DNA from: Podarcis cretensis
Lineage: Eukaryota
Assembly: GCA_951804945.1 (NCBI GenBank)
Contig: OX638158.1
Coordinates: 41,044,001-41,108,000, forward strand
Length of the DNA stretch: 64,000 nucleotides
Reading direction: 5' to 3'
Positions 17,836 to 42,955 of this stretch are shown piece after piece. The translations under genes were made by a program, and so were the position numbers. The notes under the pieces were generated by a model, which saw only the letters and a program-made list of their open reading frames with translations, had not been told where the DNA came from and ran no database searches. Position 1 is the stretch's first letter; every line of letters starts with the position of its first letter.

Positions 17836-18285
17836 AAGGTCCATATAGTTAAAGCTATGGTTTTCCCAGTAGTGATGTATGGAAATGAGAGCTGGACCGT
17901 AAAGAAGGCTGATCGCCAAAGAATTGATGCTTTTGAATTATGGTGCTCGAGGAGACTCTTGAGAGTCCCATGGACTGCAAGAAGATCAAACGTATCCATT
18001 CTTAAGGAAATCAGCCCTGAGTGCTCACTGGAAGGACAGATCCTGAAGCTGAGGCTCTAATGCTTTGGCCACTTTATGCGAAGAGAAGACTCCCTGGAAG
18101 ACCCTGAAGTTGGGAAAGATTGAGGGCACAAGGAGAAGGGGACGACAGAAGACGAGATGGTTGGACAGTGTTCTCAAAGCTACCAGCATGAGTTTGACCA
18201 AACTGTGGGAGGCAGTGGAAGACAGGAGTGCCTGGTGTGCTCTGGTCCATGGGGTCATGAAGAGTCGGACACGACTAAAAACAAC
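17836..18285 (+). mobile_element. 5'-truncated BovB/RTE LINE 3' end
   Basis: Decayed ORF (VFPVVMYGNESWTVKKADRQRIDAFELWC...RWLD), GAGTCGGACACGACT terminus with a CAA-like tail; 11-bp TSD AGCATGGTCAT at 17825-17835 and 18286-18296. Confidence 0.92.
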
Positions 18286-18817
18286 AGCATGGTCATGCTG
18301 GCTGGGCCTGATGGGAATTGTAGTCCAAAACATTTGGATGGCACAAATTAGGAAGCAGGTGGCTTACAGTTAGCTCAAGCTATGCATCTTGATGTAACCA
18401 TTCTGACCAGGGTAACAATGTACATCTAGTGGCTACAAGAGGAAATTTTGCCACGTTGTTACACAAGGACAAAAAGAAAATTAAAAAAAACTGTTTCAGA
18501 AATAATTTTCCTCCCTAAGATGCAAAGAGGCAAAGATGCCTCCCCTCCCCGCCTTCTCAGATCACACTCGATTTCAACAGCCATTTTCCTTCAGGGTGCT
18601 TGGCCACAATGTGCCAAGAGTTTTCAGGGGGTAGAGGAAATTTAACATGTACCCTAATTTTGGCACTATAGTTACCCTATAATTCTTCCAAATGAAAGTG
18701 CCATGAGAACTCTGATTGTACGATAGCTGCCATCTTATAATTGCTTACTGGCGAGAGGCGTAGGATAACAAAATCTCCTTCTTTCTTATAACCTCTTGAA
18801 GGCTGAAAGAGGATCTT

Positions 18818-18821
<4 letters not shown>

Positions 18822-18853
<32 letters not shown>
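18822..18853. repeat. (TC)n microsatellite
   Basis: Direct reading. Confidence 0.95.
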
Positions 18854-18856
<3 letters not shown>

Positions 18857-19989
18857 CTTATTCAAGGACTAGAAAGCCCAGCAGATTCCAGCATCAGAAT
18901 TGGTACCACTTGATGCCAGCTGCCTTTTCCTGCCCATTTCATGCCACAAAAAGCACACAGCTCTGAACAAGCAAATTCAGCAAGCTCATCAATGCCAGCA
19001 TTTTGTTACTGTTAATAAATGGACATGTGAAGAAAGACTGGGGCTAGTAATTTTCCCAGCTGTTAATGAAAGCACTAGAAGTCACTCAGAATAACTAAGA
19101 ATAAGAACATTCTGTGCATGACACATCCTTTTCCTTACGAGTGTTAGTAGACAGTACATATCAACAGGTCTCACACCTCTGCAATCTTTCCCATAGAAAC
19201 TCTCAACAGGAGGAAGGTAACAAGGACAATCCCATTTCACATTTTAGAGGGCTGCTGTTAAAAGTGAAATACATTCCTGCGGACTTTATTTCGTCAAAGA
19301 AGGTTTTTTTTAAAAAAAATATCTCTCAACTGTGTACTGATTGGCCTTCATCATACCCTTTTCTATTACTGAACTCTTTTTTAAAATGCAGTACACAAAC
19401 ACCTCATTATAGCATGCAAATTCTCTCCTTGCCAACCTCATTAGAGATGGTGCACTGTATTAAAATAAAGCTCTTCTCCCTGCTTCCTAAATGAAGAGGA
19501 TTAAAATAATCCAACAAAGAAAGGGAACAGCATTAGAACTAGAGACTGAACCATCTAGAATCACTTTTGCCATACATCAAACTAAGACCACATTTTGCCA
19601 CGCTACGAACACTTCTTAATAAGACTGTTTTGCAAATCAAAGATAGGCAGAAATATTCTAAGTCTATTTTACCTCTTAATGTTCCCACAGTCAAACTAAA
19701 TGCCTAAGGTTTTTTAGCATTAAAAATGAAGTGGTATCAAGAATATACAACCAGTTATTCCTCAATTTTGAAAGTACTGATTAGAGAGCTACCTATTGTG
19801 CAGATGACACTCTTATCTGACTTCATAGATCAGATGAGTGGAAAATAATCAATTGTGCATGACAGGAATTGTTGCCATATGACAGCACTTTTAAGCAAAG
19901 TTTACCTACCTATTCTGTTCTGCTCCTTTCAGAATCTAAGAGGCATATGCACAGCAAACCTGAAGATAACATTATGAGAGACATATATC

Positions 19990-20244
19990 ATTTATTATTC
20001 TATTATCACATTCCTATCCCAACTTTTCTCCAAGGAGCTCAATGCAGTGTATCCACTTCTCCTACTTTCCCACTTTATCCTCACAACAAACCTGTGAGGT
20101 AGGTGAGGATGAGAGGTAATGAGAGACTGTGACTGACCCCAGGTTGCCCAGTGGACTTTATGTAATGGACAGGGATGGGGACAGTGGACTGGGATGTGAA
20201 CCCTGGTTTCCCAGATCCAGCACTCTAACCACTATGTGACACTG
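19990..20244 (-). mobile_element. MIR-like CORE-SINE relic
   Basis: TTATCCTCACAACAAACCTGTGAGGTAGG core and a CTCTAACCACTA tRNA-head remnant. Confidence 0.6.
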
Positions 20245-20320
20245 TTGAATGTATGAGCAGGCGAATGAACACCAAAAGGCTCCATGCCTACATAAATTTA
20301 AAATTGGGAAACTGGCATCA

Positions 20321-20585
20321 TTGTTGTTGTTTAGTCATTTAGTTGTGTCCGACTCTTCATGACCCCATGGACCAGAGCACGCCAGGCACTCCTGTCTTTC
20401 ACTGCCTCCTGCAGTTTGGTCAAACTCATGCTGGTAGCTTCAAGATCACTGTCCAACCATCTCGTCCTCTGTCGTCCCTTTCTCCTTGTGCCCTCCATCT
20501 TTCCCAACATCAGGGTCTTTTCCAGAGAGTCTTCTCTTCTCAGGATGTGGCCAAAGTATTGTAGCCTCAGCTTCAGGATCTGTCC
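20321..20585 (-). mobile_element. 5'-truncated BovB/RTE LINE 3' end
   Basis: Minus frame ILKLRLQYFGHILRREDSLEKTLMLGKMEG...RWLD; (CAA)n tail; homologous to 18035-18285. Confidence 0.92.
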
Positions 20586-20735
20586 AATCAATTGCTAAAA
20601 CTAGATATGTATACATATCTTTTAACTATTGCATCCTCATTGCAAAGTAAGACACCCCCACTTTAAATAGGTTGTTCAGGTTTTTTCTGAACAAGCAGAG
20701 TCACAGACTTGAATCTTCACTAAGGTATCCTACAG

Positions 20736-20871
20736 CAGGCTTCCTCAACCTCGGCCCTCCAGATGTTTTGAGACTACAATCCCCATCATCCCTGACCACT
20801 GGTCCTGCTAGCTAGGGATCATGGGAGTTGTAGGCCAAAAACATCTGGAGGGCCGAGGTTGAGGAAGCCTG
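20736..20871. mobile_element. Palindromic hAT MITE (136 bp)
   Basis: Near-perfect long TIRs CAGGCTTCCTCAACCTCGGCCCTCCAGATGTTTT; TSD TCCTACAG/TCCGACAG. Confidence 0.88.
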
Positions 20872-21039
20872 TCCGACAGTCATGCAGCAACATGAGAAGC
20901 TGCCTCAGAGAACTACAATTCCCAGTGCCCTTACCAAACTACAGCACCCATAATTATTTGGAGGGAGTCCTGTGCTTTAAATGCACATCAGGTGTGCTTT
21001 ATATGTATGCCATGGCTCTGCCCTTATCCCGAGTCAGAC

Positions 21040-21201
21040 AACTGCTCCATCTAGCTCAGTACTGTCTATTCAGACTGACAGTAGCTCTCCAGAGTTTTAG
21101 GCAGGGAATATTTCCCAGCTCTACCTGGAGGTGCCGGGATTTGAGCCTGCGAGTTTCTGCATACAAAGCAGATGCTCCACCACTGAGCTACAGCCCTTCC
21201 C
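21040..21201 (-). mobile_element. tRNA-derived SINE relic
   Basis: Minus strand GGGAAGGGCTGTAGCTCAGTGG...CAGGCTCAAATCCCGGCA (A and B boxes); a related body fragment lies at about 16400-16530. Confidence 0.6.
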
Positions 21202-24985: not shown

Positions 24986-25975
24986 TAATGTCAAAGCATC
25001 ACCGCCAATTATTAGCTGCTCTGGGCTACACTTTGTAAGAGCCATCTTGCAGAAGACATGCACCCTGCCCTTTTTCTTCCCAACATGTGAAGTGTTTTCA
25101 AGATGAGCAGCGGCAAAACTGAAATAAAATCTGAGCGCAAAGTTTTAAAATGTCGCAGAAAGAAACTGAGCAGTCAATCTTCACTTTTCCTCTGGGAAAC
25201 TTCGAGCACACAGTTCACCATAACTCTTTAAGTGTGAACCCTATAAAGTTTGCCTCTGGGAATGCTGGTAATAAAGGCAATTCCATGCTGGGAGGAAATT
25301 GCATCATAGGGTTTCACCTCCACTCCAGCCCCACTTTGGCACAACCTCCCTCATCAGCCTTGCAGAAGCCTCATCAGATCAGGTTTTGCAGGCTCTCCTC
25401 ATCTTCGAGTCCAAAGGCAGGGGAACATGCCCATTTTCCCCGCTCACCTATTATTTTTCATTTTAAGAGGCATATCAAAGACTACTCTCTGACACTTAAT
25501 CACTTAGGGAAGGGAGGAGAGAATGAAATATGGCAGTGTAGAAAAAGAATCCCTTTAGAAGGCTTCAAAAGGTACAAGAAGAATTGCTGATACAGGCCAA
25601 CTGTCAGACAACTGCAATGCAGAAGATGTGGAACATTCATAATTTTATCTCTTTTCTGTAATTACTACACAACAAACCAACTCTCTCATTCAGTTAATAC
25701 CTCAGAAAAATATATCAAAGTCAGGAATTCTGCTGGCCGGCAATATACAGTTCAGTGGTTTCAGTTATTTCCCAAAATATTGCCGTGTTTTGTAGCAAGT
25801 GATTAAACGTTCACCCTTCAATAGACAAGAGTTTACATATTCAAACTCGCATTCATGAGAAACATATAGCTGCAATTACCGTATTTTTTGCACCATAACA
25901 CTCACTTTTTTCCTCCTAGAAAGTAAGTAAGAAAGTAATGTCTGTGCGTGTTATGGAGGGAATGCCTACGGGTGG

Positions 25976-26385
25976 TGTCAGGGAACTGCCATCGGAAGGA
26001 CAGGTGGTGAGAAGGCTTCAGGAGAATAGGAGAGACAATTCTTCAGCAGAAGAGGGAACCAGTAGGGGGAGTGCGGGAGCTCCAAAGGAAAGGGAGTCGG
26101 AGGGGAGGCTCTGGGATACTTCCAGTGAGAACAGCGAGGAGGTATCAGAACAGCTTTTAAGGACCCCCACCCCCCGCCGGAAACTGTCACGCAGGGAATC
26201 CAGGAGGCGCATGTCCGTGAAACAGCTTTTATGTTGGAAACGTTTCCGCAAACGCCCACTGTCAGATTCTACCAGCGACTGACGGAGCCATGCTGAAGGG
26301 CTCCGCTCAAGGCAGGGTTTCACTACACTGAGTGAGCTCTGAGGGATCCAGCTTCAACGCACAAGCAGCTCATCATCCCACCACA
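25976..26385 (+). repeat. 5' LTR (410 bp)
   Basis: Begins TGTCAGGGAAC, ends CCCACCACA; same sequence as 31077-31486 (offset 5101; the antisense ORF translations of both copies are identical). Confidence 0.97.
26227..26268 (+). promoter_or_regulatory. Predicted LTR core promoter/TSS (TATA-like TTTTATG about 30 bp upstream of the predicted +1 near 26258)
   Basis: The self-primer must be the 5' end of the transcript; TATA-like box spacing and a CCACT initiator-like context agree. Confidence 0.55.
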
Positions 26386-26387
26386 GC

Positions 26388-26398
26388 AATCTGACAGT
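26388..26398 (+). promoter_or_regulatory. Self-priming primer-binding site (Tf1-type)
   Basis: AATCTGACAGT, 2 nt after the 5' LTR, is the exact reverse complement of LTR bases 26258-26268 (ACTGTCAGATT); there is no TGG tRNA-type PBS. Confidence 0.85.
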
Positions 26399-26430
26399 CC
26401 CTGAAAGCAGCTTGTGCAAAGAGAGGCATC

Positions 26431-27445
26431 ATGAGCAACCCAGCCGGAGCCGGAGATGGGGGAGCAGCTGCAGCCGGTCCTAGCCTGGAAGAAAGGTACA
26501 GGATGTTGGAGGTACAGTTAGCTCTGCAAACGGCGAGGCTGGAGGAGAGGAGGGCTCATGATGCAGAAAAGGGGAAAGCCGCCCAGCTCTCGAGGAAAGT
26601 GCCAGGACTGGTGCAGAAGTTTGGGGGTGATCCCAGGAATTATCAAGCCTTCAGGACAGAGATGCAATATGCCCTCAATCTGCAGTTTGATGATTTTCCT
26701 GATGAGGATTCGAGGGTTGCTTATGTGATTGGGCATCTCGAAGGCGGGGCCAAAGATTGGGTGAGGCCACTAATGGCAGCCAATAATGAAGCCCTAAGGG
26801 ACACAAGGAAGTTTTTTCGCGCCATGGATCTGATGTTTTCCAGCGAGATTGAGCAGGGAGTGGCGCGCAGGCAGTTAATGGCGTGTAAACAAGGGAACCG
26901 ATCTGTCCGTGAGTACTGGACTGAGTTCACCATGTTGATCCATAAATTAGGATGGGATTTGTCAGCGGAACCGATACAAATGCTGTTCGAAGAAGGACTA
27001 TCTTCGGCAGTGAAAGACGAACTTTCCCGGGGGCCCAGGGCGGAGTCTATGGACCATCTGACTAAATCAGCGCTGGCCATAGGATCACGCCAGGAGGCCA
27101 GAGCCTTGGAGAAGCGGGAAGGGAAAGGGGAGCGTTGGAGGGATTTCCGCATTCCAGAGATGCCAGAGCAGCCTTCTCTGCCAGCAGAGCCGATGGAAAT
27201 CGGAACAGCGCGCGCGCGCGCAATTTCAAACCCCAGTGAAAGGGCGGAAGAAGGAGGGAAAAGGCGCCAAGAAATGTTTTCTCTGCCAACAGCCAGGTCA
27301 TTTTGCCAGAGTTTGTCCGCAAAGAAAGGAATGGCAAGGAATGGCGGGAGCTGTTGGGGAGGAGGGAGAAGGAGCTAAGGAGCAAGTAAAAGCCAACGCC
27401 TGGCTGCCACCGACGGGGCACAGCAGCCAGGCCAAGGAACAGTAA
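26431..27445 (+). CDS. gag: Gag (retrotransposon capsid domain plus CCHC zinc knuckle), interrupted by a frame break near 27208-27235
   Basis: ORF 26431-27378 encodes capsid motifs (KFGGDP...FPDEDSRVAYVIGHLEGGAKDW; MHR-like KQGNRSVREYWTEF) and EPMEIG. The CX2CX4HX4C knuckle CFLCQQPGHFARVC lies in the +1 frame (27236-27445). Confidence 0.9.
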
Positions 27446-30400
27446 ATGTGCCCACGCCAGAACCCCCAAGACCAGCTCTTGTAATAGAGGTATTGCTGGA
27501 GCTGGCAAACGGACACCCACTAAAAGTGAAGGCGCTATTAGACTCAGGCAGCTCCTGCAACTTTATGAGTAAGGAGTTTGCAGCCGCCCATCAGATACAG
27601 ACCATTCCTTTAAAAAATCCCCTGCAGGTGACCACGATTGATGGGAGGGCTCTGTTGGGGGGAGAAGTAGACCAGCAGACTGTCCCCATGACAATGAGGG
27701 TAGCAAGACACACGGAACGGATAGCGTTTAATATAGCCACGTTGGGAGGAGCGCCCGTCATTTTGGGGATGAGCTGGCTAGCGCTGCATGATCCGCTTGT
27801 GGGATGGCATCAGAGAGTGGTTTCCTTTGGGTCAGCACATTGTATGGGACACTGCACAGAAAAAGGGGGCCAAGTAGGCACTCAGGCCACGTTAGCAAAG
27901 ATAGAAGCAATGGATCAAGGTAGGGTACCACGACAATATGCAGATTTTGCCGACGTCTTCAGCGAAAGGGAAGCAGATAAACTACCCCCGCACAGACCCT
28001 TTGACTGCCAAATCAACTTACTTCCAGGAGCGCAATTGCCAGTGGGCAAGGTGTATGCAATGTCTGACAGAGAGATGCAGGAGCTAAGGGAGTTTATTGA
28101 CAAAAACCTCAAGCGTGGGTTCATCAGGGAGTCACGAGCGGTGGGGGGTAGCCCAGTGTTCTTTGTAGACAAAAAAAACTCGGACAAACCGAGATTAATT
28201 GTGGATTTCAGGGCCCTAAACGCAGTGTCCGAACCCGTGAGCTTCCCTATGCCCAGAATCGATGACATTCTGACCCGGGTGAGAAAAGGGAAGATTTTTA
28301 CCAAGCTGGACCTGAGGGGGGCGTATAACCTGATACGTATGAGAAAGGGAGATGAGTGGAAAACCACTATGTTCACCCCCTTGGGGGCATTTGAGTACTG
28401 CGTTATGCCTTTCGGCCTCCAGGCGGGTTCAGCAGTATTTCAATCATTCATGAATCACGTACTAGGACCATTGCTGTACAAGAACTGCGCTGCGTTCTTG
28501 GACGATGTACTGGTGTACTCAGAGGATGAAGAGCAGCATGTGCGAGATGTACGAGAAGTACTGAGCAAACTGCAAGAAAACCAGCTGTGGGTGAAACTGG
28601 AGAAGTGTCAGTTTCACACCAGGGAGGTGGAATTCCTTGGGTACCGGTTGTCGGACAAGGGGCTGGCCATGGATCCTAGCAAGGTGCAAGCGGTGCTGGA
28701 ATGGAGGCCACCGAAAACTAAGAAAGATGTGCAGAGGTTTTTGGGGTTCGGAAACTTCTATCGGAAGTTCATCAAGAACTTCGCCCATTTAACAGCCCCC
28801 ATCACGGATTGTCTCAGCAGTAAGAAGAAATTTGTCTGGACGGAAGAAGCGCAGCGAGCTTTCGAAAGTTTAAAGAGGGCGTTTGCTTCGGAAGAACAAC
28901 TCTTACAGGTGGATCTGCAGCAGCCGATGAGGGTGGAAACCGACGCGTCTGACAGAGCGGTGGGCGCCGTGCTCCTGCAGCCAGGAGCGAATACGTCGGA
29001 ATGGAGGCCGTGTGCCTTCTTCTCGAGGAAATTGAACAAGTCTGAGAGGAATTATACAGTGTACGACAGAGAATTACTCGCTGTCCACGAAGCATTCAAG
29101 AGATGGAGACACCTGTTGATTGGGGCGCAACACAAGGTTCAAGTGCGGACAGACCACAAAAATCTAGAATACTGGAGAACAGCCCGAGTATTGAACCAGA
29201 GACAAGTAAGATGGGCGCAAGAGTTCTCCAAGTTCAATTTTGAAATTCGCTACGTACCAGGGGCTGAGAATGTCAGGGCGGACGCTCTCTCCAGAAAACC
29301 TGAGTACTTGGAGGGGGAAGGAGGGGCGGAAGAAAGACATATCATCTCAGAGGACCACTGGGTTTGTGGGGCGGCATTGGTGGGGCAAAGAGAACTGGTA
29401 GAGGGTATTGAAAACGATGAATATGCCCAAGAGAAACTTAGGGAACTCAGGGAGACAGGTGAGAACGCAGGGGGGTTTGAGGAAAAGAACGGAAAACTAT
29501 ATTACAAAGGGGCGCTCTACATACCAGGTGGGGAACTAAGAGGGCGGGTGCTTAAACAGTTGCATGACAGCCCCACGGCGGGGCACTTCGGGCAGCACAA
29601 GACCATGTGGTTGGTTACCAGGGAGTTTTGGTGGCCCAAGGTGCGGGAAGACGTGCGGGAGTATGTCAGGGGATGCGACAGGTGCCAAAGAGCAAAGGGA
29701 GAGAGGTTGGCGCCAGCAGGGTTATTAGAACCATTACCCACCCCAGAAAGGCCATGGGAGATGGTATCCATAGACTTCATGACCGATCTACCGAGATCCA
29801 AAGGGAAAACCGCGGTCATGGTGGTGGTAGATCTACTAACTAAGATGTGCCACTTTATAGCTTGTTCACATGCAGTGACAGCGGAAGAAACCGCAAGGTT
29901 GTTTGTGGAGCACATTTTTAGGTTGCATGGCGCCCCCTTGATGGTTTTGAGCGACAGAGGAAAACAATTTACTTCTAGGTTCTGGAGGAAACTAATGAGC
30001 ATGTTGCATGTGGAGGTAAGTTTTTCCACCGCCAGGCACCCAGAAACAAATGGGCAAGCAGAAAGGGCAAACGGGGTTTTGCAACAATATCTGAGGTGTT
30101 ATGTAAAGGACAGAGAAACTGATTGGGTAGACTGGTTACCTCTGGCAGAATTTGCCTACAACAACGCGGAGAACGTGTCCACAGGGATGAGTCCCTTTCT
30201 AGCCAATTATGGGTGTCATCCTCGGGCGTTTCCAGGAGAGGGCGGGGGAAGGTGGAGTGTACCTGCAGCGGAAAATTTTGTTGAAGAGATGGAAGCGATC
30301 CACCGTCAGCTCCAACTCAACTTAGAGAAAGCCAAAGAAGAATATAAGAAGCAAGCAGACAGAAATAGGAGGGAAGGCGAAACCATAAGGGTGGGTAACC

Positions 30401-31383
30401 GGGTGTGGCTCTCCACCCAAGGACTGCCGTTCAAGGGAGGGTGTAAGAAATTGAGACCCAAACGGTTGGGACCCTTTGAGGTCATACAGCAGGTCAACCC
30501 AGTAGCATTCAAACTCCGATTGCCCAGTCACATGAAATTGCACCCAGTATTTCACAGGTCATTACTGTCGCCATACAGAGAGGGGTGTGAGTGGGGGGAA
30601 CATGAGAGGGAGGTCACCCGGACACCCGTCATAGAAGAGAGAGAACGCAACATGGATGTGGCAGGGATCATTGATTCCAGATGGAAGGGGAATCAGGTGG
30701 AATACTTGGTAGAATGGGAGGGGGAGGAAGAGTCAGAAAACACATGGGTACCGGCAGAGGAAGTCAAAGACGAGATTTTAATAGAAACGTTTCATCGGCG
30801 TTTCCCAAGGAAACCACAACCAGTGGCAAGGTTTAGGAGGGAACACTTCGGGACTACAGATGAGGAAGGGGAGTTTGAAGGGTTCCCAGAGTCGGGAGTG
30901 GAGGTGGAAACAGATTCCGACGAAGGAGAGGAAGAGGGGGAAAGAGGCGGAAGGCCGTGGTTAGAAGTGTTTGAATCCTCGGAGGATGAGGGGAGTTCCT
31001 TCCAGGGATTTCCGTCCTCGCCGCCAGTAAGAGAAGAGGCGGGAGGGGGTGAAGGGGGCCCTGGGGGGGAGGTGGATGTCAGGGAACTGCCATCGGAAGG
31101 ACAGGTGGTGAGAAGGCTTCAGGAGAATAGGAGAGACAATTCTTCAGCAGAAGAGGGAACCAGTAGGGGGAGTGCGGGAGCTCCAAAGGAAAGGGAGTCG
31201 GAGGGGAGGCTCTGGGATACTTCCAGTGAGAACAGCGAGGAGGTATCAGAACAGCTTTTAAGGACCCCCACCCCCCGCCGGAAACTGTCACGCAGGGAAT
31301 CCAGGAGGCGCATGTCCGTGAAACAGCTTTTATGTTGGAAACGTTTCCGCAAACGCCCACTGTCAGATTCTACCAGCGACTGA
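27379..31383 (+). CDS. pol: Pol polyprotein: aspartic protease, RT, RNase H, integrase, chromodomain and long C-terminal tail; probably made as a Gag-Pol fusion by -1 frameshift
   Basis: Open frame from 27379 with no stop. Motifs: LLDSG (27541), AFLDDVLVY (28495), VETDASD/DRELLAV/TDHKNL/ADALSR, HHCC (HDSPTAGH...CDRC), D-D-E (SIDF, LSDRG, QAERAN), GPF, and chromodomain YLVEWEG...NTWVP (about 30652-30807). Confidence 0.96.
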   Translation, partial: GASKSQRLAATDGAQQPGQGTVNVPTPEPPRPALVIEVLLELANGHPLKVKALLDSGSSCNFMSKEFAAAHQIQTIPLKNPLQVTTIDGRALLGGEVDQQTVPMTMRVARHTERIAFNIATLGGAPVILGMSWLALHDPLVGWHQRVVSFGSAHCMGHCTEKGGQVGTQATLAKIEAMDQGRVPRQYADFADVFSEREADKLPPHRPFDCQINLLPGAQLPVGKVYAMSDREMQELREFIDKNLKRGFIRESRAVGGSPVFFVDKKNSDKPRLIVDFRALNAVSEPVSFPMPRIDDILTRVRKGKIFTKLDLRGAYNLIRMRKGDEWKTTMFTPLGAFEYCVMPFGLQAGSAVFQSFMNHVLGPLLYKNCAAFLDDVLVYSEDEEQHVRDVREVLSKLQENQLWVKLEKCQFHTREVEFLGYRLSDKGLAMDPSKVQAVLEWRPPKTKKDVQRFLGFGNFYRKFIKNFAHLTAPITDCLSSKKKFVWTEEAQRAFESLKRAFASEEQLLQVDLQQPMRVETDASDRAVGAVLLQPGANTSEWRPCAFFSRKLNKSERNYTVYDRELLAVHEAFKRWRHLLIGAQHKVQVRTDHKNLEYWRTARVLNQRQVRWAQEFSKFNFEIRYVPGAENVRADALSRKPEYLEGEGGAEERHIISEDHWVCGAALVGQRELVEGIENDEYAQEKLRELRETGENAGGFEEKNGKLYYKGALYIPGGELRGRVLKQLHDSPTAGHFGQHKTMWLVTREFWWPKVREDVREYVRGCDRCQRAKGERLAPAGLLEPLPTPERPWEMVSIDFMTDLPRSKGKTAVMVVVDLLTKMCHFIACSHAVTAEETARLFVEHIFRLHGAPLMVLSDRGKQFTSRFWRKLMSMLHVEVSFSTARHPETNGQAERANGVLQQYLRCYVKDRETDWVDWLPLAEFAYNNAENVSTGMSPFLANYGCHPRAFPGEGGGRWSVPAAENFVEEMEAIHRQLQLNLEKAKEEYKKQADRNRREGETIRVGNRVWLSTQGLPFKGGCKKLRPKRLGPFEVIQQVNPVAFKLRLPSHMKLHPVFHRSLLSPYREGCEWGEHEREVTRTPVIEERERNMDVAGIIDSRWKGNQVEYLVEWEGEEESENTWVPAEEVKDEILIETFHRRFPRKPQPVARFRREHFGTTDEEGEFEGFPESGVEVETDSDEGEEEGERGGRPWLEVFESSEDEGSSFQGFPSSPPVREEAGGGEGGPGGEVDVRELPSEGQVVRRLQENRRDNSSAEEGTSRGSAGAPKERESEGRLWDTSSENSEEVSEQLLRTPTPRRKLSRRESRRRMSVKQLLCWKRFRKRPLSDSTSD
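27385..27453 (+). promoter_or_regulatory. Programmed -1 frameshift signal: H-type pseudoknot
   Basis: Stem 1 GCCTGGCTGC (27398-27407)/GCAGCCAGGC (27423-27432); stem 2 GGGCACA (27416-27422)/TGTGCCC (27447-27453); lies in the overlap where pol is -1 relative to the zinc-knuckle frame. Confidence 0.75.
31063..31076 (+). other. Polypurine tract
   Basis: GGGGGGGAGGTGGA immediately 5' of the 3' LTR. Confidence 0.8.
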
Positions 31384-31486
31384 CGGAGCCATGCTGAAGG
31401 GCTCCGCTCAAGGCAGGGTTTCACTACACTGAGTGAGCTCTGAGGGATCCAGCTTCAACGCACAAGCAGCTCATCATCCCACCACA
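31077..31486 (+). repeat. 3' LTR (410 bp), overlapped by the last 101 codons of pol
   Basis: Direct repeat of the 5' LTR, followed by the GGTGG TSD. Confidence 0.97.
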
Positions 31487-33261
31487 GGTGGCATGCCTAC
31501 GGATTTTCCTCCTCTAAAAACTACATGCGTGTTATGGTCGGGTGCGTGTTATAGAGCGAAAAATACGGTAATTCTTTGTTAGACAAACCATTCTGAAGCT
31601 GTTGAGTAAACAAAAGCAATTTATACTTGTTGCTTCTGAAGCTGCATATTACTCAATAGTGTAGGGAAATAGTGTTTCTTAGTTGTGTTGTATTGGAAAC
31701 TTATGTTGCAAAGTCTGTGAGAAGAGCTGAGTTTGGTTTGGAAAGGGGGGGGAAGGGGATTAATTTCTGTTTGTCACACAAAATGTTAAAAAGCACGGGA
31801 GGTTTTAAGAGAAGCAAGTTGGTAATACACTTAACAACATACTACAGGTAGATCTGTTAGCAGCCTTTAGGCACAGATAATTATATCTGGATGCATGATA
31901 CTGGGTACTCAGATAGGTAGTTATGAGTAAAAGCCATACGCTTTTAAATTACTACCTAGTATTCCCACAAAGGAGATGCCAAGTTGACTACTTATCATAA
32001 TGGGCTCTTGGTCAAACAAAGTATACCATTTTGAAAATAGCAAATTATTGAAGGCAATGGTTTGCTCACAGCACTGGCAATAAAGTTATTATTTGTACCA
32101 GGAGCAGAGCATTAGGCACAAATACTTAGAGCTAACAAGAATGAAAACAATGAGAGGCTACTATACTCTTGCACTAATCCTACATCTGCCTTTCCATAAG
32201 TCAGATAATAATAAAAAAAAAATACGTAGCTTCAACACCATAAAAATAAGCTGTGGGTGTCAAAAATATTGAAGATCAATATTTTCCTCCTTGAAACTGT
32301 CAAAGTATACTAAAACACATTTTTCTAAACATATGCTTTGCCCAGTATATAGCACTGTCAAAGTGTCTAGACTGCGGTTTCTCAGTAACCCAGATTTAGA
32401 TTAGATTCATATCATCATTTAGCACTTTTTTCTGCCAGGAATAGAAATGAAACTCCACTTGAGTTTTTGCTCTTATCCTGTCAGTGTACTACTAAGCATC
32501 GATTCCAAGTTTCTCTTCATCATAAGCCATTCCAAGCTTATCCTTCTGCGTGAAAGAATAACCTGCTCCTTTACAGATTGTGTCAAAGGATCTCCTGATA
32601 TGGTAGCAGATAGTTGGTTATTTTCATTTTCAGTTTTACAAAGCCAGAGACATACAACATTCATTTATCCTTCCAATCAAGGCCACTTAGCACTTTTAAA
32701 AGCTTAGAAGAGTAGAAATGTGGCACATTGTATTAATCAGAAAAGCTAAATCTACTGACTATTCCATTTCCTCAACATCAAATCTAAGGAAGAATATGAT
32801 TATCTTAGCTTTCTGGTCATGAAAGCATTCTTTTTTTAAGTCTAAGTTATGTGTGACAATAAATATTTCAGAAAACAATATATTGCATTTTAGGGTGACT
32901 CTCTTAAAAGTCTGCTTACAGCAATTAATATTTATAAGATTTCTTACCCACCTTCCACCATAATGTCCCAGGGTGGGTTACAACAAGAGAATATACCATT
33001 ATAAAAACAAGTAATACCATTATCATTTAAAGCACATAAATAAGATAGCGAACAGAAATTAAACAAAGAACTAGCAAATTAACCAAAGTATTAGCAAATA
33101 AGCCAAATAATTTCACCAGTAAAAAGTTAACGAATAATTTTAAATGTTTTTAAGAACTGCTGTATGTACCACCTGGATCATGGAGTCCAAACATGTGGGG
33201 CCACCATCAAAAAGCCCCTGATACCTACCAACCTGATGGTTCTTCCTTAATGGTGGGTAAA

Positions 33262-34131: not shown

Positions 34132-34480
34132 TTGAAGCTGATCTTAGAGCCTGGCAAATCTACAAGTAGCACAGACCCAAACCATCTGAAGTTTTTAAAA
34201 GTCAAAATCAGCACCTTAAATTAAGAGAGGATCCTACTGTGTCAGAGCTCTGATGAAGGAAGAAAGAGGCACTAGTAAAAAGTAGCTTTTTTGCACATTC
34301 AAGGCCTAGTAGTTAGCCTGACTGCCACTTCAGGGCTGCCACTCCCAGTAAAAGGAAGCCTGCCACCCTCTTCTAAAGAGCACATGTAAATTAGGGGCAG
34401 AGAGTTCAAAGGAAAAATGTTGTTTAAGATCATTTTAGCAAAAGACGGGAGTCAAGTTGGGAGCCCCTCATCCCTTAGAC

Positions 34481-34616
34481 CAGGCACCCCCAAACTCACC
34501 CCTTCAGATGTTTTGGGACTACAACTCCCATCATCCCTAGATGACAGGACCAGTGGTCAGGGGTGATGGGAGTTGTAGTCCCAAAACATCTAGAGGACCA
34601 AGTTTGCCTATGCCTG
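34481..34616. mobile_element. Palindromic hAT MITE (136 bp)
   Basis: Same family as 20736; TSD CCTTAGAC on both sides. Confidence 0.88.
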
Positions 34617-35393
34617 CCTTAGACAGAGCTTCTAGACAGACAGCCTCCTGGAGGCCTTCATAAGAAAATATATTTCCCAGCTTTCCTACTGATTCAATCA
34701 AGAATGTAGTTAGCAACCTTGTCTCCTTGCCACAAGCCGTTAAGGTGAAGACACCTAACTGATGTAATCAATTCAAAACTATTTATAAACTTTTAAAAAG
34801 AGAAACTAAGTATTTTTTAAAAAAAATCATACAAAAGAATCGCATCGAATTCCACAACATCAGAAGCAGAGAATCCCATGCTTCTTTGAAATATTACAAA
34901 ACAAAACAGATATAAAAAGCCTTGAAGCAATATACAGAGTTGAGAATTCATCATTACAAAGTCATTACTATAAAGCATTTAGATAGACAGTCTCTGGGGC
35001 AAGGAGCCGTTTACAGTTTCTGTAATTCATCTAGTGAATATATCTCTTCTTAGGCACAATAATAATTTGTTAGAAGGCAAAAATGTTCCTACATTGGATG
35101 GCTATGGCCTTCTATATGTGAAAAAAAAAATGTAAAAATACTACCAACACTGGAACATCAACTCCACTGTATCCACAGATGTAAAATTTGAATTGAAGAT
35201 GCACCAGCCAGCAAATCTTCTAGTAGTTGGTAGAGTTCTTGCTCTATACATATCATTTATCAGCACATTAGGCAGGACTAATCACAGTGCAGAGGTGGAG
35301 ATTTCTTGCCTTTAAATACAAGAAAGCCCCACTGTCAGTTTTACTATTTGTGGCAATAAATTTTTGAGACATTATTGCAGCTGTTTCTATAGA

Positions 35394-40194: not shown

Positions 40195-40783
40195 TACATG
40201 CAACTGTGCACATGCACATCACAGCAACGCAAAAGGGGCCAGAAAGAGGAGCAGGGCAGGGGAGCCTTACATGCACTCTGCCGATGTGCATGGGGCTCAG
40301 GAATGCAACCCACACACAAAACAGTCATTGACTGTATAAGTAAAAAGGCATAAGGGTATTAAAACAAACAAACAAAACCCTTGCTATTAACTTCTTAAAA
40401 CCCACACAACTTCATACAGGAAAGTGATGTCTTTCAGGCAACCTGGCCCCATCATGTAGGGCTTTTTGATCATAATAAGCACTCTGACTTATGTATGAAA
40501 CAGACCCACATCTGCTGAAGCTGCTGTGACATATGGGTCACATGTTCCATATAAGCGTTCCTGGTCAATTTTTCTGGCTGCAGCATCACCAAGCGCCATT
40601 CCTGTTCTTCAAAGCCAAGTGTGGTCAATTACAATTCCAAACAAATTTCAGGATATCTCAAGAATGGCAAAATTTTCCAGAAGCTGTGAGCTGGTGAAGT
40701 ATTCAGCACCACATGCCAAAATCAGACATGCTCTGTGGTTCTCCTACCCACTCCATCTAGCAATCTTGTGCAAAACCTTGTAT

Positions 40784-40919
40784 CAGGCATAGGCAAATTT
40801 GGTCCTCCAGATGTTTTTGGCCCACAACTCCGATGATCCCTAGCTAACAGGACCAGTGGTCAGGGATGATGGGAAGTGCAGTCCCAAAACATCTGGAGGG
40901 CCGAGTTTGCCTATGCCTG
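40784..40919. mobile_element. Palindromic hAT MITE (136 bp)
   Basis: TIR CAGGCATAGGCAAA; TSD CCTTGTAT/TCTTGTAT. Confidence 0.88.
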
Positions 40920-42737
40920 TCTTGTATCTTGATAGAGAGGTAAATATTGCCTGCCCAATTGGCCTGAACAGAACACACATCAGGGGTTGTAGTTCAAAAC
41001 ATCTATAGGGCACCACGTTGCAGTGGGCTGCTGTAAGTCTAGAAGGCCGTATAGATGGATCTGTAGTTCAAAACATATGAAGCCACCAGGTTAGGGTAAT
41101 CTGACTAGGAGAACGTATGGGTAGATTTGTTCCAAGTCAGTGGGGGAAACAGCTGGAATAAGTTGTGACAGGATGACTGATCTGCGGAGCTTCTACCATG
41201 GCACTCTCAAATAGTCTGGTACACCACAGTAGTGCAGAAGAATAGGAAAACAAATGCTACATTTGCTTTCTGGCAAACACCTGAGTAGATGCTTAGCTTC
41301 CAACCAGTTTTTCCCAAAGAAAGCAAGGGTCAGAAATCAAGCAATACAGATTTTTCCAGCTCCCAAGAACTATTCATCTAAAAAAAAAAAAAACCTATTT
41401 ATTTTTTTAAAAAATCAGCCAAAAGAGGCATTAAGACAGGAAAAATCTGAATAAAAAACAGATTCCATCCCACCTGTTTTGGTGTTCTGCCCAAGGGCAT
41501 TTCTTCAGTAAGCTATCTACACAACAGGAGGAAGGTGAGGCAAAAAGTCTGTGTGCCTTATCCTCCTCAAATCTCCAGTATTAAGCACCTTCCAACTCCT
41601 CTTCAGCCATGTGAGAAATCTATACACAGTTCCAAAAAAACCATTAGGCTCACACAGACTCTGCTGAATTTGCGTGCAAATTCAGCAAACTCGATATAAA
41701 ACGGATCATGTTTACAGGGAGAAAAATGATTAAATTACTTAGCAGAAGCACTAGCATGGGAGCCTGGTTTTATAAGGATAACAATGAGGTTATCTGGAAG
41801 CATTAGTACAGTACTGCAGTAAGGGAAGAAAGAAACCATGCACAGCACAAGGAAGACATCTACAAATATTACTGTGTTCCTGGTTGGGAATGAGTATTCA
41901 ATAGTCACATCCTTTTTCTCAATTTGAAACAGAAGAAAGTTCATTACCCACTAGATTCCTTTCCAAATTAAAAACCTTTTTACAAAATAGGTTAAATAAT
42001 TTGAATCCATGTTCCAGTATTATTTCTCAGGCTCTTCACTCCCCCACTAAGCTTTTTTTCTTGTTCAAAATCCACAAATTAGGTCGTCCCCCCCATTACA
42101 CAATTTTTCCTAAGAATTAAGATTTGATTTCTTTTCAATGTTCCAAGCTACTTCAGAAAACAGAATAGGGAAGGAAAGGAACCAAGAAATGAACCTAACT
42201 GTGCTACCACACACCACATCTAGCCCAGTGAAAATGAAAGAACACAGCCCCACAAGATTCACCTCATCCATGTGCTCCTTTGCTGGCAGTCTACTGTTTT
42301 AACCAACACAGGCTGCAACCCTATACCAAATTACCTAGGAGCAACTCCCATGGAACTGAATGGGTCTTTCTTATGAGTAGACATGTACAGAGTTGCCCTG
42401 TTGAGCCCCATCCCACAAATGCTCAGTGCAACCTCAAAAGTATGGTTACTGTTTTCGTCAATGAGTGCATCACTCAACACACAAGTAAAGTAAGCACTTC
42501 TTTGTTTTTTCCAAGCCAGGTGCATTTTTCTTGTTTGTAGGGCATCTTAATAGAACTAACTTTGCAGGTTAGGGTTTTTTTTCCCCCAGGTACTGAAAAG
42601 AGTGGGTACACGACTTGGATGTGTACCGTGAGTGGATTCACTGCTGCTGCTTGAGGCTGAGGTGGCCTTGGTGGCACGGAGTGCTTTCCATCAATACCCG
42701 GCTGCAACCCTATCTGGACAGGGATAGTCTAATTTCT

Positions 42738-42955
42738 ACAAAATAAAAAAATTCCTTCCAGTAGCACCTTAAAGACCAACTAAGTTAGTTCTAGGTATGA
42801 GCTTTTGTGTGCATGCACACTTCTTCAGATACACACATGCACACGAAAGCTCATACCTAGAACTAACTTAGTTGGTCTTTAAGGTGCTACTGGAAGGAAT
42901 TTTTTTATTTTGTTTTGACTATGGCAGACCAACACGGCTACCTATCTGTAACTGG
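42738..42955. mobile_element. Penelope-like element (PLE) terminal-repeat fragment in inverted (foldback) configuration
   Basis: 78-bp inverted arms (42738-42815 and 42836-42913, one mismatch), hammerhead core, and 12-bp flanking duplication AGTCTAATTTCT (42726-42737, 42956-42967). Confidence 0.8.
42795..42832 (-). ncRNA. Minimal type I hammerhead ribozyme motif (core G mutated)
   Basis: The minus strand reads GTAT-CTGAAGA-A-GTGTGCATGCACAC-AAAA-GCTC-ATAC; the other arm keeps the intact CACGAAAGCTCATAC half. Confidence 0.72.

Follow-up and report, generated by a model that had tools for sequence, protein, structure and literature searches.

A lizard Tf1/sushi-type chromovirus whose pol frame continues under purifying selection through the polypurine tract into the 3' LTR and ends in a candidate import or docking signal

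The window analysed here, a 64,000-nucleotide stretch of Podarcis cretensis DNA (GCA_951804945.1, contig OX638158.1, positions 41,044,001 to 41,108,000 of the forward strand), contains a full-length LTR retrotransposon at 25976-31486, with two identical 410-bp LTRs (25976-26385 and 31077-31486) and the target-site duplication GGTGG on both sides. The element is a young Tf1/sushi-type chromovirus of a lacertid lizard, its LTRs being identical; its closest named proteins come from Podarcis muralis and, beyond lacertids, from fish and from fungal Tf2-type sequences. It is inserted in a short inverted-repeat DNA element, and none of the 104 open reading frames of at least 75 aa outside the retrotransposon had a Pfam match, so that a host gene around the insertion was not found. 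The features of the locus, in window coordinates, are as follows.

25879..31568, no strand: short inverted-repeat DNA element hosting the retrotransposon, about 175 bp without the insert, TA-flanked
25971..25975 (left) and 31487-31491 (right), no strand: target-site duplication GGTGG
25976..26385, plus strand: 5' LTR, 410 bp, TG...CA, same sequence as the 3' LTR
26260..26268, plus strand: self-primer, 9-nt complement of the PBS, covarying with the PBS in four variants
26386..26396, plus strand: primer-binding site (PBS) of the self-priming type
26431..27445, plus strand: gag, capsid and CCHC knuckle (Pfam Retrotrans_gag, Ty3_capsid)
27379..31383, plus strand: pol ORF, 1334 aa, PR-RT-RNaseH-IN-SH3-chromodomain-tail, with an SH3 of Tf2 type
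30658..30801, plus strand: chromodomain (Pfam Chromo; alignments)
30832..30885, plus strand: TIM-like motif 1, aa 1152-1169, predicted helix, 8-residue acidic linker, FEGF
30958..31011, plus strand: TIM-like motif 2, aa 1194-1211, W-x3-F, 9-residue acidic Ser-rich linker, FQGF
31063..31076, plus strand: polypurine tract (PPT), in-frame, from the sequence, position and phase identical in relatives
31077..31486, plus strand: 3' LTR
31078..31260, plus strand: LTR-coded linker, aa 1234-1294, Ser/Glu-rich, predicted disordered (low pLDDT), omega 0.32
31261..31383, plus strand: LTR-coded conserved end, aa 1295-1334 and stop, omega 0.073 (codon table, model, NLS pattern)

By analogy with Tf1, the self-primer at 26260..26268 is the predicted 5' end of the RNA and start of R, and the last 7 codons of the LTR-coded end fall within this predicted R. 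In the gag of the window copy a private frameshift separates the capsid from the zinc knuckle; of 12 other young copies, 11 encode both without a change of frame and have pol in the -1 frame, and we infer that Gag-Pol is made by a programmed -1 frameshift relative to the gag knuckle. Inspection of the gag-pol junction (27370-27445) showed no textbook slippery heptamer, and the junction segment, together with a downstream stem-loop-like inverted repeat, is near-invariant among subfamilies. No AATAAA follows the stop in this LTR (31384-31486); the LTR of the sister family described below has one. Elsewhere in the window, long inverted repeats at 18034-20585 (182 nt at 93% and a further 66 nt, separated by about 2.1 kb) probably belong to a DNA transposon, a tRNA-Thr(TGT)-like gene on the minus strand at 21126-21197 (ARAGORN) is possibly a SINE head, and short palindromic elements lie at 20728-20875, 34473-34620, 40776-40923 and 42738-42913; three of these are related to one another, each having 58-nt arms separated by 20 nt, and the other is a near-perfect 78-nt palindrome.

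An earlier note on this DNA had described a pol frame running through the PPT into the 3' LTR, and the coordinates bear this out. From 27379 onwards the frame has no stop until the TGA at 31381-31383. The third base of its codon 1233 is the first base of the 3' LTR; the 101 codons that come next lie wholly in the LTR (31078-31380), and the stop occupies LTR positions 305-307, about 305 bp inside the 410-bp LTR. Since pol crosses both the PPT and 101 LTR codons, all of the predicted U3 is coding, and the basic peptide singled out in that note is found at aa 1298-1327. When the 303 LTR-coded bases were shuffled 20,000 times, a mere 1.0% of the resulting sequences were free of stops; the extension of the frame beyond chance is confirmed, and selection tests reject neutrality. 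Reading pol past the PPT had also been presented as unusual: the extension itself stands but seems less rare than that, as fish relatives, judged from protein, appear to pass a PPT-like motif and several non-CRM beet chromoviruses extend into the LTR (PMC3605345).

A search of the 1.5-Gb lizard genome, in which 40 of 2372 candidate places were scored, returned 30 loci, one of them the window, and none of the 29 other young copies had a stop or indel in the LTR-coded part. A diverged set of 30 copies with 72-81% nucleotide identity gave, with the window copy, 31 sequences in five subfamilies. The LTR-coded frame was intact in 28 of these 30 copies, the two exceptions being private indels; indels shared among them were multiples of 3 before the stop, and after it five shared indels of 1-2 nt occurred. 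All copy sets, these and those described below, were picked as best matches, a choice that favours intact copies. A two-ratio codon model of the 31 sequences, in which the long branch of the window copy was counted among the shared branches, gave a shared-branch omega of 0.21 for the LTR-coded part (p 1e-19 against 1), 0.32 for its first 61 codons and 0.073 for the last 40 (p 3e-16), compared with 0.053 for RT; terminal-branch values were 0.72 and 1.32, as expected post-insertion, and the other two plus-strand frames gave 1.9 and 3.0. NG86 comparison between subfamilies put dN/dS at 0.22 over the LTR-coded part and at 0.11 over its last 40 codons, with 1.20 and 1.84 in the other plus-strand frames. 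Across the last 40 codons, variation is about eight times higher at third than at second positions (0.32 vs 0.04), and Arg codons alternate between CGN and AGR, and Leu codons between CTT and CTC and between TTA and CTA. Older families with 51-56% tail identity enter the LTR in the same phase, read 100-109 LTR codons and have the same end, and their in-ORF indels common to at least six copies were multiples of three in 4 of 4 cases. Across 95 loci, counted once known duplicate fetches, loci of host genes and the sister family had been set aside and with one locus perhaps counted twice, 72 were open from the first FxGF motif to LLCW and 23 were broken; most breaks between motif 1 and LLCW occurred in single copies, and two 1-nt deletions were each found in three copies that do not form a clade. 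These results show strong purifying selection at the protein level on the LTR-coded part, with phase and stop kept across families; the outcome that the earlier note had named as refuting its reading, early stops or frameshifts after the chromodomain or an LTR without frame-preserving constraint, was not observed in the diverged families. Length changes in the first 61 LTR-coded residues come as whole codons, the behaviour of a flexible linker.

The coding LTR also carries a signal that acts in RNA. A self-primer had been placed within it, and covariation with the PBS in four variants demonstrates that it is real: the sequence at 31361-31369 pairs with the PBS (26386-26396) at 9/9 in the window copy, and among the 29 diverged copies whose PBS can be read 26 match as well, which adds two further variants; a fourth was found elsewhere. 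The residue that it encodes (Ser, Thr or Ala) follows RNA pairing with the PBS, self-priming is known for the Tf1/sushi group (PMC6317226, text accessible in part), and the distance from self-primer to stop is about 20 nt in families with 410-bp and with 784-bp LTRs alike, the whole predicted U3 being coding in both. The TATA-like box fared differently. TTTTATG is indeed present in the window copy at 31328-31334, over Leu-Leu-Cys codons and about 30 nt upstream of the self-primer, but it is not conserved as DNA in relatives; because it changes at silent positions and one relative (L119) reads CTT CTT TGC and has no box, the protein is kept and the box is not. The description of the LTR as a dual-coding promoter is a deduction from position and is not supported. 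A TATA box as the cause of LLxW conservation was likewise rejected, since the DNA varies (CTT/CTC, TTA/CTA; CTT CTT in L119). Divergence at four-fold sites is 0.29 in U3 and 0.38 in the internal region (95% interval for this difference -0.19 to +0.02), so silent-site constraint in U3 is at most weak. Contigs from two possibly-RNA runs of one sample contained no joints, starts or ends for the element.

Comparison with relatives indicates how far back the extension reaches. In a sister family (P0010-like, about 53% pol identity), pol passes through the PPT in that phase too and continues for 218 codons within a 784-bp LTR; it ends in a basic patch with S-x3-LLxW, the pattern R..L..R..R...S...LL.W is common to both families, and the single FxGF of the sister family has a non-acidic context. 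A search with a profile against 1.84 billion representatives yielded P0196, a protein that combines W-x3-F, an acidic linker and FLGF with a basic-patch end KGLLCWKRR, and one viper and one amphisbaenian protein continue about 85-105 residues beyond a PPT-like motif to basic-patch ends. A loosely defined PPT-like GG-x-V motif was present in 32 of 149 parsed hits; nine parsed hits have an SPE(Y/F)-like stretch as their terminus, which in most cases comes 15-25 residues beyond a glycine-rich segment, and six of the nine carry names from Labeo and Hemibagrus. Fish relatives thus appear to run 15-25 residues past the PPT-like motif, the LTR boundaries of all these proteins being deduced from protein. 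Short read-through therefore probably goes far back in vertebrate chromoviruses. The long conserved tail is a squamate elaboration, whose likely origin would be a fish-like short read-through followed by in-frame growth of U3. A profile of the final 48 residues retrieved only six proteins, five named from Podarcis and one a sister-family copy. We also observed that a Podarcis P4-ATPase gene model (P0192) ends in the LTR-coded peptide, through LTR exonisation or as an annotation artefact.

The conserved end is built of a basic patch, a predicted helix with the order S/G-V-K-E/Q-L-L-C-W and a second basic patch, and 15 of its 40 residues are K or R. The bipartite nuclear localization signal (NLS) pattern consists of two basic residues, ten of any kind and at least three basic residues in five. 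It matches at aa 1309-1326, the sole occurrence in the 1334-aa Pol, and fits 73 of 79 distinct C-termini; it fits neither the three C-termini of the sister family nor P0196, all of which retain LLxW. The suggestion that the basic tail is an NLS is therefore plausible, Pol having its sole bipartite hit there, but it does not carry over to the sister family and P0196, and an Arg-rich stretch matches NLS patterns easily. Because the sister family and P0196 keep LLxW without the bipartite pattern, the hydrophobic helix is the most deeply conserved element, and its conservation is not explained by import alone. AlphaFold modelled the chromodomain with confidence and the tail as disordered, and placed helices at aa 1149-1157 and, with low confidence, at aa 1314-1323 (VKQLLCWKRF). 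The tail had no match among solved structures and no Pfam family at the cut-off, the last 56 residues of a homologue gave no usable Atlas hit, and a fold search returned chromodomains only, none at E <= 0.001.

From these observations we lean towards a reading in which Pol reads the PPT and predicted U3 and the selected last 40 residues are, on balance, likely to serve as an import or docking signal of the integrase. The product would be a Gag-Pol frameshift protein, with the tail presumably remaining on the integrase, although the tail may instead be cut from it by the protease. Importin-alpha would read the basic/LLCW/basic end as a bipartite NLS, the conserved hydrophobic spacer (the LLCW helix) may dock a host protein, as in Ty1, and the end of the tail would carry the pre-integration complex into the nucleus.

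The earlier note had paired the basic tail with FxGF motifs; two are present, but they lie upstream of the PPT and outside the LTR. Each TIM-like unit comprises hydrophobic anchors, an acidic Ser/Thr linker (8-9 and 9-10 residues) and FxGF, and omega is 0.32 for the stretch that holds the two. FxGF, with variable x, is retained in 29 of 30 distinct motif-1 variants and is invariant in both motifs in 9/9 aligned copies, the tandem pair being conserved across lizard families; the strict form D/E-x-E-x-FxGF occurs in 16 of 30 motif-1 variants but not in the window copy, and motif 2 has no central E. In the AlphaFold model the predicted motif-1 helix (aa 1149-1157) runs on from the end of the chromodomain and motif 2 is non-helical. 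TND-interacting motifs consist of a helix, an acidic linker of 8-16 residues and an optional FxGF; every known LEDGF/HRP2 partner carries FxGF, and lentiviral integrases alone are given as viral mimics in the accessible part of that source (PMC9987994). A consensus of D/ExExFxGF is stated in the portion available of PMC8022399. The two motifs resemble LEDGF/HRP2-binding motifs and may form a candidate tether to host chromatin proteins: the TND/IBD of LEDGF or HRP2 would be the binding partner of the helix-acidic-FxGF pair, and the lizard genome encodes two proteins with a LEDGF domain. An alignment-free complex prediction of the lacertid LEDGF IBD (P0073, 400-488) with both FxGF motifs (P0001, 1146-1216) scored 0.09 against a mark of 0.34 and has no weight either way.

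The chromodomain next to these motifs is itself altered. Its first and third aromatic cage residues are replaced by M and E; position 1 is non-aromatic and position 3 is E in 9/9 aligned copies, and all three cage aromatics are present in the chromodomain of a fish homologue. Position 3 was checked against HP1, and the first position is one that we take partly from HP1, besides the alignment with the fish homologue. Group I chromodomains have three cage aromatics, and the lizard domain is not of that kind. Such cage loss defines group II chromodomains, found at that date in plants only according to the accessible text of PMC3605345. The sister-family chromodomain (L076) also has no central Trp. 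With two of the three methyl-lysine cage residues lost, the FxGF tether could stand in for the chromodomain. A broader reading, in which a disordered tail with tandem TIM mimics directed at LEDGF/HRP2 replaces chromodomain targeting, all of U3 codes the linker and the import or docking motif, and the sister family amasses in telomeric arrays, is in our opinion tentative and less likely than not.

The two families differ in where they are found. The best 150 hits of the sister family divide into 46 located no more than 150 kb from a chromosome end, 50 on small contigs, 43 interior ones and 11 that could not be placed; none of 76 hits of the window family lies at a chromosome end, its copies being scattered over the chromosomes, and centromere-like clustering was not seen for these 76 copies, centromere positions not being mapped. 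As an observation in its own right, the sister gypsy family is very young, with 784-bp LTRs and a 1556-codon pol frame, and occurs inside (TTAGGG)n arrays: telomeric arrays were found at 8 of 12 loci examined, and sister loci include L067-L070, L072-L075, L078 and L079 (e.g. G000:C8:5000-14500 and G000:C7:94593000-94602500). The sister family is possibly a telomere-preferring vertebrate LTR element that uses other insertion sites too.

This distribution bears on the main rival to the import or docking reading, namely that the LTR-coded end acts mainly in chromatin targeting as a counterpart of the CR motif, its Arg-rich helix and LLxW binding the nucleosome, DNA or a chromatin protein and setting the insertion site, with import secondary. 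The CR motif of CRM group A is likewise encoded in the 3' LTR and linked to centromere targeting, families without the bipartite spacing still retain LLxW, the chromodomain cage is degenerate, and different tails go with different distributions (ends in 46 of the 150 best sister hits against 0/76). However, the LLxW end is common to both families despite those distributions, which implicates the parts that they do not share; the end has no similarity to a known chromatin-binding domain in Pfam, solved structures or the Atlas, and the window family displays no visible centromere-like clustering. We consider this alternative rather unlikely, albeit the strongest of the rivals. Still less probable is a role within the particle or the protein, where the basic end would bind RNA or cDNA, or fold onto the acidic FxGF linkers and mask them until they are phosphorylated. 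The charges would suit such a contact (26 D/E among the 83 residues that precede the LTR, 15 K/R among the last 40), and the tail has many S/T-x-x-D/E sites, but Gag already supplies a CCHC knuckle, a tail-tail contact is absent from the model (at low confidence), and the near-invariant K-x-L-L-C-W-x-x-F suggests a specific partner rather than charge alone. Finally, incidental read-through, with LTR DNA or RNA signals causing the conservation, is effectively excluded: RNA pairing does dictate the self-primer codon, U3 four-fold sites are slightly less diverged, and a purine-rich sequence stays open by chance in about 1% of cases, but the excess of third- over second-position changes in the last 40 codons, the Arg and Leu codon switches and an omega below 1 (p 1e-19) all speak against it.

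The import or docking reading, and the element as a whole, can be set beside known systems. Within the literature covered, which was seen in part and lay mostly outside subscription journals and Repbase/Dfam, a vertebrate element with such a layout was not found, and neither were FxGF motifs in a gypsy integrase nor a telomere-associated lizard gypsy. Within that literature, the layout otherwise belongs to plant chromoviruses, and the lizard element offers a clean, measurable case in a vertebrate retrotransposon of U3 evolving as coding sequence, with a 40-residue motif that is under RT-like constraint and amenable to peptide tests. In addition, two related, recently active families with unlike tails and distributions provide a natural comparison for target choice set by the tail.

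The nearest system is that of the Tf1/sushi chromoviruses (GyDB V-clade: sushi-ichi, Amn-ichi/ni/san), which are alike in PR-RT-RH-IN, the Tf2-type SH3 and the C-terminal chromodomain, and which share the self-priming PBS and 5-bp target-site duplication with the lizard element (PMC6317226, accessible portion). The lizard element differs from them in a post-chromodomain tail of about 190 residues, 101 codons of it in the LTR, and in its degenerate aromatic cage. The plant CRM precedent that the earlier note had invoked for extension of pol into the 3' LTR is correct according to the literature on the CR motif, and an ORF into the 3' LTR is common to CRM group A and the lizard element. In CRM group A, however, the CR motif replaces the chromodomain and lies downstream of the PPT, whereas the lizard chromodomain is kept upstream of the PPT; the host is a vertebrate, priming is by self-primer and centromere-like clustering is not seen. 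Because its chromodomain lies upstream of the PPT and it is self-priming, the lizard element is not a CRM. Ty1 integrase has a C-terminal bipartite NLS whose linker binds AC40 (PMC7459421, accessible text), a short C-terminal segment combining import and docking for which the lizard end is a possible parallel, although Ty1 belongs to the Copia superfamily and the lizard segment is LTR-coded with a partner that is only postulated. The IBD-binding motifs of the TIM/LEDGF type (MLL1, JPO2, PogZ, IWS1, JIL-1) present the same order of helix, 8-9-residue acidic Ser/Thr linker and FxGF, in tandem in the lizard, where they sit in a retrotransposon integrase tail, adhere to the strict consensus in 16 of 30 variants and resemble the host motifs by sequence. 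Lentiviral integrases contact the same host domain via a folded surface. Should the FxGF motifs prove to bind LEDGF/HRP2, the lizard retrotransposon would have converged on the integration cofactor of lentiviruses, the host factor used by HIV integrase, through imitation of a linear motif of the host itself.
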